Source: Eledone cirrhosa
Lineage: Eukaryota
Assembly: GCA_964016885.1 (NCBI GenBank)
Contig: OZ024741.1
Span: 28,210,001 to 28,274,000 of the forward strand
Length of the DNA: 64,000 nucleotides
Direction: 5' to 3'
The notes below the pieces were generated by a model, which was not told the origin of the DNA, ran no database searches, and saw nothing but the letters and a program-made list of their open reading frames with translations. Each line of letters opens with the position of its first letter. Position 1 is the stretch's first letter. Shown here in pieces: positions 8,875 to 31,911 of this stretch. A program made the position numbers and the translations under genes.

Positions 8875-9693
8875 CTGGCTGTCCAAAATAAATGCTGTGG
8901 TATTTATATCTTTTCTGGTGGTAGGAGAGGGTGGGGAGTGGGATGGGTGGAGGTCATTGGTTGAAAGAAAAGGGAATTCATTAAAAGCTAATTCTTTAAG
9001 GCTATAATTTATATTTAGAGTGACAAAGGCAGAAAGAATTCTATAAACAAGTTCTGAATGGGGTGGCACTCATTATTTTTAAGTTTCTCTTAAGCTAACA
9101 ATGCCTATATTTCAGGGGTCTATAAGATGGTTGGGGATCGGTCATGGTTGATTTAAAGAAAAGGGAAATTCTTTAAAAGCTAATTCTTTAAAGCTCTACT
9201 TACAGTGACAAAGGCAAAGAGAATTCTATAAATCAGTTCAAATATTGGGTGTCTATCATTATTGTCATGTTTCTCTTAAGCTATATTTCAGGTGTCAACA
9301 GACACATTCACATACACACACACACACATATATATATATATAAATATACACATATATAAACTTCACAAACACATCTACACATATACACATATATACACAT
9401 ATACATAAATACATAAATACACATACACAAATATATATATACACATATATATATATATATACATATACACACACACACACACACACACACACACACATAT
9501 ATATATATATATATATATATATATATATATATATATATATATATATATATATATATATATATATATATACATATATATATATATATATACATCTATATAT
9601 ATATATATACATATATATATATATATATATAAAAGACGTAAAATAAGAAAATAAAAAAAAAAAATTTTTTAAATTAACTTACTAAAATTTTCA

Positions 9694-9773
9694 CTCCAAC
9701 TAATTAGTTTCTGCAATGGGATAAAGACAGTTACGTAATGAACTGTTGAGAATTTCATTGCGTCATCAGTGAG
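9694..9773 (-). ncRNA. Type I hammerhead ribozyme, family C (stem I mismatch)
   Basis: CTCA-CTGATGA-CGCAATG...CATTGCA-GAAAC-TAATTA-GTT-GGAG. Confidence 0.75.
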
Positions 9774-10240
9774 GTCTATTCTCAGCCAAGTCTCCAGGCA
9801 ATGCGCGGACACTGGGGACTCATATAAAAATAATAATAATTCGGTAAATGGAACAGCTATCGGGGACTGGATTCCAAGTACTGAAAATCTCGCTCCCACT
9901 GGTCAAATGGCCGATTCTAAAGAATCAATCACGTGACACTGAGGCTAGTCGGTAGGAGTGGGATGGTAAGATGACAGACGCCTACTAACACACCAAAAAT
10001 TTAGTAGTGGTTTTGGCAGGTTTGCTCGACAAATCAGTGATTTGGAGATAAATATAGATAATTTAATATATCTACTAACATAAGCGCACAGATGTACGCT
10101 AATGCCAGCAAATACACAGGTTATATCATAGTACCTAGGTGGTTCAATGCAGGAGGATGCAGAACAATAATATAAAAGACGTAAAATAAGAAAATTTTAA
10201 AAGAAATTTTAAAAAATTAACTTACTTACTAAAATTTTCA

Positions 10241-10320
10241 CTCCAACTAATTAGTTTCTGCAATGGGATAAAGACAGTTACGTAATGAACTGTTGAGAAT
10301 TTCATTGCGTCATCAGGGAG
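10241..10320 (-). ncRNA. Type I hammerhead ribozyme, family C
   Basis: CTCC-CTGATGA-CGCAATG...CATTGCA-GAAAC-TAATTA-GTT-GGAG. Palindromic stem III AACTAATTAGTT. Confidence 0.85.
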
Positions 10321-10436
10321 GTTTATTCTCAGCCAAGTCTCCAGGCAATGCGCGGACACTGGGGACTCATATAAAAATAATAATAATTCGGTGAATGGAA
10401 CAGCTATCGGGGACTGGATTCCAAGTATATATATAT

Positions 10437-27392: not shown

Positions 27393-27458
27393 TTTTATCT
27401 GAAGAGAACACAATATCTGTCCCAGGATGACTTTGTATTCGAAATACGTATAATAAAA
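27393..27458 (+). ncRNA. Type I hammerhead ribozyme, family F
   Basis: TTTTAT-CTGAAGA-GAACACAA...TTGTATTC-GAAAT-ACGT-ATA-ATAAAA. Palindromic ATACGTAT. Confidence 0.88.
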
Positions 27459-29464
27459 TATATGGAACTCTTATAACCATCTTTTATTTCATCTTTATTA
27501 TATATATATATATATATATAAAAAACATATCAAACATTCCTTTAGCATTCTACCTTACTACCACCACTAACCCCCACCCACACATCCACATCCGCCCACC
27601 CCACAACTAATATTACTAACATCCCCCAACCCACCTTCCGCCTCACCCACACACACGAACACACACCATCACACATACACCCACCCACACCTACGTACAC
27701 ACCAATACACCACCCACTCCACACGCCCAACCACCACTAACCCTACCTACACACCTGCATTCCACCCCTTCCCCACCACCAGTAATACTAACACCCTCTC
27801 TACCACACACACTCATATCCAAACACGCACACACACACCCTTTCTCTCCCTCTTTTTCTCCCCGCTCCACCTAACCCCCTCATACACATCCCACTAACAC
27901 TTCCACTAATATACACACCAACCCCCCACATCACCACCTTCTCCCTCCACCTGTCACACCTACCCATCCTCTTCCCTGTCCACCGCACCTCCGCACACAC
28001 AGACACACAGTCCACACCACATACAGACCCTTTCTTTACCTGACATCCTTCTCTACTGATATCTCTTCACCCTGCCTTGACCCTCTGGCCACTTCCAGTT
28101 GCGCGCGCACCCCACATCTCTCCACTTCCGCACTACCACACCAGGATTTCACACCACCGGTCATCGTTCCAGCTATCCATTCTACGAGACGTGGAATCTC
28201 CAACATCTTGTCTCACACTCCATGGAAATATCTTAGGAACATACACTTACATTATTTTCGAACAACGCCACCTACATCCACACCACATATAAACACAAAC
28301 ACACACGTGCGTAACCCCATATACACACACTCAGTCTCCGGACTCCACACGCCCCCTCTTCCCCACCCCTCTGACCCCTCTCCATCCACACACACGCACA
28401 CACCGACTTACACCCCTCCCCATGTACACACAAGTTTCCCTTTTACCTGAACATGGAACCTCGTTCTTCCCCCAACTCTCACATTCACACACACACACAC
28501 ACACGTACACCTACACACATACACAAACACCACCTTCAGTGTCTGGGGAGGGGGAAGTCGATTAAATCGACCCCAGTGAATTACTGGTGCTTTATTTTAT
28601 CGACCTCGTAAGGGTGAAAGGCAAAGGTAACCTCGGTGGGATTTGAACTCAGATCGCCATGGGCCGTAACTCTATGTAGCAAAGCATGGTATCTGACGCC
28701 CTATCGATACCGTCAATCGACCTCTCTGACACACACACACACATATATCTTCATATATACTCTCTTTTTCTTCCCCTTATCTCTCGCATACCCACGCACT
28801 TTACTGTCATGTATACAGTATTTTGTTTCAATTCTATTCCGTTGTATTGAATATATTATAGACTTTTAGCCAATAGTGTATTTATAAGCAGCTTGTTTAT
28901 ATATATATATATATACTGTATCTGCATGAAAAAAAAAAAAAAAATGAAACAACTGGACTAGTTTCAATTATCTGCTGAGATTTATATCACAATATAGAGT
29001 TGTTACTTCACTAGTAATTTATTTATCAAACTAGCCTTCAACAATGTGATTTATGTGCGAAACTTGTCTATCCAATTTTCTTAAACTTTTAGTAATACTG
29101 ACTTTAACAGCAGTATATTCGACGACATATAAAAACGTTCTCAATTGCAAGACGAAATGCAAACACAGGATGAAATCTAGTTCAAGTGATGCCACTTTTT
29201 TTGTCCATTAAAATATTATATACGAAGTTGAGGTGTTTACATTTGTCTATAAATAAACTATAAGTCGAAAATATATGGATATGTTTCGTGAGAGGGTATA
29301 AAAGTGAAACACAATATTGATAACGTAATAGTGATTTACGAATCAATCATTCTGACAGATTTTACAGGCAAAACCAGCCTGCAGGAGACCCAGGAATAGA
29401 CTCAGAGCAAGATGGTTGAATAACTTCCAAGAGCTTGGCTGCTCTCGTTTGGAGATTCAGCCAG

Positions 29465-29600
29465 ACCAGTTGGAGACGGTTGCTTCTGATAAGACCCACT
29501 AGAAGAAGTATTTGAGGACTGTGCCTTCACGACCAGTTGGAGACAGTTGCTTCTGACAAGACCCACTGGAAAGAGTATTTAAGGATTCTTACCTCACGAC
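29465..29600. repeat. ~67-bp tandem duplication in an unclassified repeat
   Basis: ACCAGTTGGAGAC(G/A)GTTGCTTCTGA...CACG occurs twice. Confidence 0.7.
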
Positions 29601-30806
29601 CCTTTTAGGAATAAGTGTGCGAAGAAGAAGAAATTGTTGTGACTTTATTTGCTTTTCATTAACTTGGGTTTTTATAACAAACTATCTGAAGCTTCTTCTT
29701 GTTTTATCTTACAGAATTGTTTGTTTTAAAATGTTTATATTTGATGTTTGATGTGTTTGCGAAATAGCGTCTCCTTTTTTGAGGGCAAAGAGTGATGCCT
29801 CATATCTTCTTTGTAACAACAACAAAAAATGGAAAAATACCGATTGTAATGGGTGAAAAACAACAAACTTACGGGAACGACCTGTAATATGTGTCAACAG
29901 ACGAACGAGAAGAAGAAGAAGAAGAAGAAGAAGAAGAAGAAGAAGAAGAAGAAGAATGTTTCAATTTATTTAAGATCTCAGATATAGACGGTTTATTGTC
30001 AGATTTTCTGTGAACAGTCAAAGAGGTCAGCAGTTGCTTATGATGTAAAAAAAGAAGAAAAATTGAACCTAATCTGGTTGATTCCTGTTTTTCTGTCCAC
30101 TAAATATTTTGTATACAGACAAGATGTTTACATCTGTTCATACAAAGATAATTAACTACGACTCTATATATTTTGTATAGAATATTTGTCTCAACATACT
30201 TGTTGCTACAGTAAATATATAAAATTGAGGCAGTCATAAAAATAATTATTTTTTCTCAATACCGTAAAACGGTTTCTTCAAAATATCGATATTTTTTGCC
30301 TATATTAAAATAAAATATAAAACTAAAATATATTTTAACAACATAATACTGTGTATTTGACTCTTCTACTTTTGTCTGTTTTATCTTAGTTTTCTTGATC
30401 TACACAAAGTTATAGAAATATATATTTTATAGAAATCGTAAACTGAGTTATATAGTTTCATTCACACCAAACATTTAGATCTATATAAACAGAAGCTTTT
30501 ATGGAGGATGTTTGAATATAATATTACCGGCCAACGATAGACATTAAAAATGTCGTAATCTTATTTAACTAAACGATATATGTAGGTGGATATATGAACC
30601 GCAGATTTGGAATGATAATATTAAGATGTTAGTATTTTTGTGAAGAAACGTGGAATTGAATTCGAATAAATGTTCGGATATATATGTGTATCATGTGAAT
30701 TTTATATGACGATGTTGCGCATATCTGCTAGTAAATGAATATATATAGATACATAATCTATAAAGGTATATATATATATATATATATATATATATATATA
30801 TATATG

Positions 30807-31911
30807 TAAAGAATTAGTATATCTACCAACATATATATACAGATGCATACCTATGCTAGTAAATATATAGGTTTTGTCTTAGTAACTTTGTGGTTCAATG
30901 CAAGGCGATGCAGAACAATTATATGAAAGACGTAAAATAAGAAAATTATAAAAATTTACTTACTTACTAAAATTTCACTCCAACTAATTAGTTTCTGAAA
31001 GGGAATAAACATGGTTTCCGATTGGAACAACATGGAGAAATAACCTTTCGTCATCAGGGAGATCTGTTCTCAGCTAAGTTCCCAGGCAATGCGTGGACAC
31101 AGGGAACTTATACAAAAATAATTCAGTGGATGGAAAAAAGCAAGCGAGGACTAAATTCCAGGACATTGAAAAAATCACTGCCTACTTAGTCGGTGGCGAA
31201 TTCAAAAGAATCAATCACCTGACATCGAGGTCAATCAGATCTCCCTGATGACGAAAGGATATTTCTTCATGTTGTTCCAATCGGAAACCATGTTTATTCC
31301 CTTTCAGAAACTAATTAGTTGGAGTGAAATTTTAGTAAGTAAGTAAATTTTTATAATTTTCTTATTTTACGTCTTTCATATAATTGTTCTGCATCCCCTT
31401 GCATTGAACCACAAAGTTACTAAGACAAAACCTATATATTTACTAGCATAGGTATGCATCTGTATATATATGTTGGTAGATATACTAATTCTTTATAATT
31501 ATCTCCAAATTATTTTGTTGAGCAAAAATTTGCCAAAACTACTGCTATGATTCATAGTAATAGCCAGGCTACTGTCTTATTAGCACCCCCACTCCTCACT
31601 GATTGACCTCGATGTCACGTGATTGATTCTTTTGAATTCGCCACCGACTAAGTAGGCAGTGATTTTTTCAATGTCCTGGAATTTAGTCCTCGCTTGCTTT
31701 TTTCCATCCACTGAATTATCTTTGTATAAATTCCCTGTGTCCACGCATTGCCTGGGAACTTAACTGAGAACAGATCTCCCTGATGACGAAAGGATATTTC
31801 TCCATGTTATTCCAATCGGAAACCATGTTTATTCCCTTTCAGAAACGAATTAGTTGGAGTGAAATTTTAGTAAGTAAATTTTTATAATTTTCTTATTTTA
31901 CGTCTTTCATA
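30807..31911. mobile_element. Retrozyme-like locus, family C': inverted copy + ~535-bp partial tandem, three HHRs (30978-31061 minus; 31241-31324 and 31776-31859 plus)
   Basis: CTCC-CTGATGA-CGAAAGG...CCTTTCA-GAAAC-TAATTA-GTT-GGAG. Homologous to 9631-10426, no ORF, (TA)n on both flanks. Confidence 0.85.

Follow-up and report, generated by a model that had tools for sequence, protein, structure and literature searches.

What are the two hammerhead-bearing repeats in a 64,000-nucleotide stretch of the Eledone cirrhosa genome (assembly GCA_964016885.1, contig OZ024741.1, positions 28,210,001 to 28,274,000; hereafter the window), and what moves them? An earlier note had proposed that they are two retrozyme subfamilies, C and C', whose ribozymes differ by compensatory changes, unless the units prove always to be attached to an open reading frame (ORF) of a Penelope-like element (PLE), which would make them solo PLE terminal repeats (pLTRs). 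Both repeats lie where it had placed them. Judged by their sequences, C and C' belong, with about ten further subfamilies, to a single ORF-less tandem repeat that has a type I hammerhead fold. Our best explanation, in which we have considerable confidence, is that this protein-free repeat with its covarying hammerhead is a non-LTR (long terminal repeat) retrozyme and that an autonomous PLE probably supplies the enzyme for its copying and insertion.

The C insertion (9631..10427, minus strand) is a single arm of 1.45 units, 5'-truncated at 10427 and ending 3' at a position that we call site A, in (TA)n. Its hammerhead cores at 10316 and 9769 place the predicted cuts after 10245 and 9698, and the monomer between them (9698..10244, minus strand) is 547 nt long with a longest ATG frame of 35 aa. 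C' consists of a minus-strand and a plus-strand arm joined head-to-head: the inverted arm (30807..31238), whose core lies at 31057 and whose predicted cut falls after 30982, stops in (TA)n at a second position, site B, and the direct arm (31236..31911), with 1.27 units and cores at 31245 and 31780, stops in (TA)n too, at site A. The predicted cuts of the direct arm, after 31320 and 31855, bound a 535-nt monomer (31321..31855, plus strand; longest ATG frame 36 aa). The similar unit lengths of the earlier note, 547 and 535 bp, thus match the spacing of predicted cuts, and the two monomers are 79% identical (410 of 520 aligned positions). In C, sites A and B lie at +75 and +197 after the cut and enclose a tail segment (10048..10170, minus strand) with a long covarying hairpin and, at 10149, the motif CATTGAACCAC, common to two further hammerhead families, D and E.

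Each tandem unit carries a type I hammerhead with a non-canonical junction. From 5' to 3' it comprises a stem I of 4-5 bp, CUGAUGA, an extra C, a 6-bp stem II, an internal loop in which UUCUC and UUUAU are near-constant, a variable distal hairpin with CUUCGG in 24 of 282 copies, an extra A, GAA, and a 3-bp stem III inside a 12-nt palindrome, then GUU. In copy 1 of C (10225..10340, minus strand) these elements are the core CTGATGA at 10316-10310, the extra C at 10309, stem II pairing 10308-10303 with 10265-10260, the extra A at 10259, and the palindrome AACTAATTAGTT at 10256-10245 with its GUU site; a GAGAA upstream of stem I, at 10330, could form a pseudoknot with UUCUC. Private damage or truncation affects three of the five window cores, and the conservation claimed earlier holds with these exceptions. 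The CTCC/GGAG stem I is not intact in copy 2 of C (9680..9793, minus strand; core 9769-9763), where a private C-to-A change gives CTCA and breaks the first pair; the C' copy at 31780 reads GAAACGAATTAGTT, which breaks the palindrome, and the copy at 31245 starts 9 nt before its core, being 5'-truncated.

CUGANGA, GAA, the A15.1-U16.1 pair and the NUH site, with U as H17, conform to the canonical hammerhead. The R10.1-Y11.1 pair does not directly adjoin A9 and G12: an invariant C and A, absent from the earlier note, intervene between core and stem II, and of 85 position-sampled copies 84 have the C and 84 the A. Both U17 and the extra A are fixed, with 94 non-A and 69 GUC/GUA copies genome-wide versus 9,418, and a search by count for a canonical-core or GUC/GUA subfamily gave only scattered single changes.

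The figure of 9,418 is the number of occurrences, in an assembly of 3.0 Gb and 1,796 contigs, of a 20-mer spanning stem III and the cut site; its reversed control has none. The repeats of this genome look, as a whole, like those of an octopod cephalopod. DNA searches yielded 1,783 candidates for C and 3,467 for C', of which about 40 each were scored, and the position sample comprises the first 94 of the first 100 matches listed on C1, covered by loci L061-L130, with the last 6 left out. The 55 natural monomers (521-571 nt) form 12 clusters at 72-94% identity, unit GC is 35-37%, and the longest ATG frame is 27-43 aa in four monomers. The repeat units are partial tandems, not LTRs. Elsewhere (G000:C5:84.649-84.668 Mb, L217-L220) the C-family unit forms a head-to-tail array of at least ~19 kb with a period of 523-529 bp, in which variants recur every few units. 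C-related pieces also occur in contigs, of unrecorded kind, from a second organism.

Is the RNA fold of this repeat under selection, as had been proposed? The stem II difference between GCAATG/CATTGC and GAAAGG/CCTTTC does consist of two true double changes. The distal hairpin change is also real, but the wording ACAGTT/AACTGT to CATG/CATG should give way to ACA/TGT to (C)ATG/CAT(G), the helix having two compensated pairs and one gained pair from C to C'. Among 85 position-sampled cores, stem II reads GCAATG/CATTGC in 40, GTAAGG/CCTTAC in 15, GAAAGG/CCTTTC in 10, GTAATG/CATTAC in 8 and otherwise in 12. When the 30 loci picked for a stem II change are left out, 231 of 282 copies have one of five all-Watson-Crick haplotypes. 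Broken pairs occur in three recurrent haplotypes and in 23 of the 33 rare ones, of which 9 others have G·U and 1 is fully compensated. At stem II position 3, a matching change was seen by eye in none of the 41 copies altered there genome-wide. Over 48 distinct domains the covariation score is 0.201 versus 0.094 in shuffles (0 of 500 as high) and 0.019-0.067 with slid partners, the shuffles ignoring the relatedness of copies and two C rows being misaligned by one column. Two-sided change occurs in two stem II pairs and six distal pairs. One of the pairs, 37-87, is UA in 18 rows, AU in 16, CG in 11 and GC in 3, with no mismatch in 48; four pair types at one position require at least three separate double changes, even though the shuffles are blind to kinship. 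Covariation spans the entire unit: beyond the ribozyme, both the tail hairpin and long-range helices contain compensated pairs, and when monomers are folded as circles they score z -3.8 to -6.0 (four monomers, 20 shuffles each, our own shuffle routine). On all these counts the evidence supports the proposal that the RNA structure of this ORF-less repeat is under selection. Since rare variants are mostly broken and common haplotypes compensated, the sequences indicate that source RNAs are under selection for structure and that inserted copies then decay neutrally.

How the copies end is more revealing of how they move. We tiled 138 distinct insertions automatically with BLAST, a sample rather than a census, in which a few short arms are borderline. 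Their 3' ends fall at two fixed sites ~120 nt apart, A (+58 to +82 after the cut) and B (+170 to +205). Two arms are present in 101 of the 138, with ends A+B in 89, A+A in 2, B+B in none and one unclassified end in 10; A+B therefore accounts for 89 of the 91 with both ends classified, where independent choice would mix A and B in only about half. The position-sampled two-armed subset gives the same picture (A+B 35, A+A 0, B+B 0, one unclassified end 5), and the 37 single-armed insertions end at B (20), at A (16) or elsewhere (1). The target is (TA)n, with microsatellite flanking both ends in 121 insertions and one end in 17. A (CT)4 or longer run follows 39 of the 160 B sites that are terminal, none of the 148 that are internal and none of 163 terminal A sites, and may reflect slippage of the reverse transcriptase (RT) at initiation, later microsatellite growth being the alternative. 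About 79 of 100 arms cross the predicted cut site, and 5' ends are scattered without a pile-up at the cut, so the template was a circle or an uncleaved multimer, which this observation fits equally. Minority alleles are shared 3-4 times more often by copies of the same insertion than by copies from different loci.

An inverted 5' arm, a one-sided tail and a (TA)n target are features of PLE-type integration, the tail here, about 110-122 nt, being longer than described. PLE insertions have been reported to carry an inverted arm and a tail of 30-40 bp, often at one end (PMC8557442, PMC3846280). In vitro, the RT of PAc starts at two internal sites bounding the tail, alike on both strands and mostly on uncleaved RNA (PMC11167929).

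Based on these features we can propose five steps. (1) A copy of more than one unit would be transcribed. (2) Its RNA folds as a structured unit, as the covariation shows, and the hammerhead would probably cut slowly, mainly as a dimer joined through the 12-nt stem III palindrome, releasing a ~540-nt monomer that, as in known retrozymes, may be circularised. (3) A PLE protein would bind the conserved A-B segment, nick (TA)n and start reverse transcription internally at the two fixed sites; the ends are observed, and the enzyme is suggested by analogy with PAc. (4) One DNA end would be primed at A and the other at B, giving a head-to-head insertion with exactly one tailed end, the pattern of 89 of 91; when a single arm is made, either site is used. 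(5) Synthesis passes the cut site, so that the template is a circle or an uncut multimer, and we lean slightly towards the circle. Selection acts on the source RNAs, with inserted copies decaying neutrally.

Several observations weigh against this account or against the hammerhead observation beneath it. The core deviates twice from the consensus, in the C·A under stem II and in the GUU site, and an Rfam scan gave no match for C or C' at E up to 1. The best predicted fold of the monomer is inactive and lies 2.5 kcal/mol below the active one; the hammerhead domain alone folds no better than shuffles (z -1.27 to -0.01). No two-sided change was found, over the 48 domains, in stems I or III or the proposed pseudoknot, whose GAGAA/UUCUC pairing is possible in 95.8% of cells (two registers are allowed in family D), and one recurrent stem II haplotype, GAAATG/CCTTTC (6 copies), retains a U·C mismatch. 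Overall difference within insertions, 2.3-2.8%, is near that between loci, 2.3-3.3%. A partner PLE with a matching pLTR was not found in 50 GIY-YIG loci or in the window. From other systems, eight of nine Xenopus retrozyme dimers showed no cleavage (10.64898/2026.07.22.740005), and uncleaved RNA is the main substrate of PAc (PMC11167929).

Some of these points bear on a rival that differs from our explanation only in steps 2 and 5 and that we regard as quite possible without favouring it: the repeat is moved by a PLE, with a hammerhead that is crippled or irrelevant, a fold kept for protein binding, and an uncut read-through multimer as template. The fixed C·A and GUU (94 non-A and 69 GUC/GUA versus 9,418), the favoured inactive fold, the lack of a 5' pile-up at the cut site and the indifference of PAc insertion to hammerhead mutants (PMC11167929) would all be expected. 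However, subfamilies that share only 72-79% identity all retain the catalytic nucleotides (CUGAUGA, GAAAC, GU) and the palindrome. Natural hammerheads with a U·U mismatch at 10.1-11.1 can be active (PMC3088659, PMC7229834), and the NUH rule permits GUU, GUC and GUA being the fastest sites (PMC3138052). An extra unpaired nucleotide between 9 and 10.1, matching the extra C here, has been reported for PLE hammerheads (PMC4209133). In modelling, stem III is favoured between molecules (-9.0) over the hairpin (+1.5); because the active fold is also the less stable one, any cleavage would probably depend on dimers, as in axolotl retrozymes.

A second rival, that we are dealing with solo pLTRs or with what 5' truncation has left of a rare autonomous PLE, is improbable, and for two-core copies already largely refuted. 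None of the 138 insertions contains a PLE ORF or protein match or is directly joined to one, and in the 10 that lie within 500 bp of such a match a TA run always intervenes. Two same-strand cores one unit apart occur in 17 of 60 position-sampled insertions, and past site B the next hammerhead follows within ~340 nt in every subfamily (55 monomers, 521-571 nt). The constant attachment to a PLE ORF that the earlier note had set against its own proposal was thus not found in this sample, and as far as sequence can tell, C and C' are non-LTR retrozymes, a known class, rather than solo pLTRs. The genome does carry PLE ORFs with RT and GIY-YIG domains. Profile searches over the sampled DNA gave no autonomous partner, and the shared-motif pattern gave one match, family E. 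Of two copies in GIY-YIG loci, the one at L280 was inserted separately, into a TA tract that lies ~1.9 kb away from the ORF, and the one at L259 is on the opposite strand. The PLE of the window itself (16272-23260) has two head-to-head ORFs (17263-19344, minus strand; 19898-22322, plus strand) and a left end ~176 bp longer than the right, a long one-sided tail; by eye, no hammerhead was seen in its repeats. A PDB search with the window RT gave no match, and one of eight window ORFs, 32372-32932, passes the Pfam cut-off (PF01541).

A satellite that multiplied at the DNA level, through duplication and unequal exchange, and whose compensated pairs date from an old ancestor could explain the long array at G000:C5:84.65 Mb (period 523-529), but is very improbable, as copies are dispersed, of 1-3 units and 5'-truncated with fixed 3' ends, and new compensated haplotypes arose repeatedly along the subfamily tree.

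A non-LTR retrozyme moved by a PLE enzyme, the explanation that we prefer, has close parallels. Like the metazoan non-LTR retrozymes (PMC7229834; 10.64898/2026.07.22.740005), the family has low-GC tandem units that lack an ORF and contain a single type I hammerhead, and it combines thousands of copies with a short palindromic stem III and co-existing PLEs; it differs in its long stem II with internal loop and distal hairpin, its C·A junction and its GUU site. Its unit of 520-570 nt exceeds the 170-400 of Cervera and de la Peña (2020, PMC7229834) and falls within the 51-972 of Li et al. (2026, 10.64898/2026.07.22.740005). Word searches found no mention of inverted arms or a one-sided tail in the main text of either paper; the former calls PLEs a 'strong candidate' partner of non-LTR retrozymes, and the latter reports pLTR homology for Xenopus retrozymes. 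With PLE insertions and PAc the family shares partial tandems, a head-to-head inverted 5' arm, a tail at one end, an AT-rich target and two internal RT starts. In contrast to them, it has no ORF, a tail 3-4 times longer (~110-122 nt instead of 30-40), near-strict A+B pairing, (CT)n added at B and a few nt of TA microhomology at both sites, PAc starting without homology (PMC11167929). With PLE pLTR hammerheads (PMC4209133) it has in common the extra nucleotide between 9 and 10.1, a kept G10.1-C11.1, a long helix II, a short helix I, a palindromic stem III and many covarying families per genome; the second extra nucleotide, an A between 11.1 and G12 opposite the extra C, and U17 set it apart. 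The axolotl HHR_Amex2 and U10.1-U11.1 variants (PMC7229834, PMC3088659) are likewise natural hammerheads with a mismatch at the base of helix II, there U·U, here C·A together with GUU. In our literature searches we met neither this family nor a C·A/GUU hammerhead, and no retrozyme was described with a PLE tail; supplementary catalogues, outside their scope, may show variants.

The sequence CTGATGA occurs 18 times in the window versus 7.4 expected, and several of its hammerheads belong to other families. A copy of family D, a distant sister retrozyme, lies at 43752..44101 (plus strand) with a canonical core at 43957 and a GUA site. Elsewhere the D unit is 473-481 bp (3,971 candidates); D aligns with C across the tail and has ends A (+81) and B (+190), paired as A+B at three loci (L223, L226, L232). 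Just after the cut, a splice-donor-like GTAAGT followed by a pyrimidine tract is kept in both C (10228-10190, minus strand) and D (44041-44090, plus strand), and may be a PLE intron or protein site. The D copy is followed at 44101-44757 by an element of another kind, in which two direct repeats of 131 bp are spaced 526 bp apart. Family E (55833, minus strand; 56540, plus strand) has a TGATCA palindrome and a GUA site, shares the tail motif weakly (E 0.13), has a tandem period of ~490 bp at one locus (L153) and is probably a third retrozyme family.

Another tandem hammerhead repeat, at L282:7318-9001, has a period of ~490-510 bp and a very short stem III. The window also contains an inverted hammerhead pair (42964-43656; 43227, minus strand, and 43393, plus strand) that matches Rfam HH9 at E 3e-6, below the gathering score. 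Hammerheads with a TTTTAT/ATAAAA stem I occur at 16049, 27399, 53369 and 55519, and two of this kind, with a GCGC loop and an AUA site, are inverted around an endonuclease-like ORF (54248-54697) and are probably PLE pLTRs. Hammerhead-like motifs at 12305, 32165 and 37156 lie near GIY-YIG-type ORFs (among them 32372-32932), and there are minimal ones with a very short stem II at 598, 8870 and 52549. Broken RT-like ORFs at 34644-36353 and 48227-49102 are of a different, GC-rich retrotransposon type and gave no Pfam match at E 0.01 (two frames). A dispersed repeat of ~185 bp (166-349, 2168-2354, 3101-3562 and others; more than 10 copies, 85-96% identity) is probably a short interspersed element.

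Covarying hammerhead families within one genome had already been reported for PLE hammerheads (PMC4209133), so covariation was to be expected here, and more use can be made of the insertion ends. Arguments on what moves animal retrozymes have so far relied on co-occurrence and pLTR similarity; here a PLE signature is borne by the insertions themselves. For the origin of PLE inverted ends and tails, the pairing of A with B, the length of the tail and the added (CT)n supply constraints that can be counted and tested, and an ORF-free RNA of 540 nt would offer a PLE enzyme a minimal substrate. Families C (C·A, GUU) and D (canonical, GUA) form a natural pair for asking how far a retrozyme depends on cleavage, and hammerhead searches that demand a canonical 10.1-11.1 junction would miss the C family. 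Tentatively, all of this could be read together: on a single circular retrozyme RNA, a dimeric PLE enzyme would prime the two strands of a cut (TA)n target at different fixed sites, one strand always at A and the other at B, with telomerase-style stutter on a UCU template at B, and the C·A/GUU core would be an active, tuned-down variant that keeps circles intact. If true, this would provide direct genomic proof of PLE-mobilised retrozymes and a record, several thousand events long, of the formation of PLE inverted ends.

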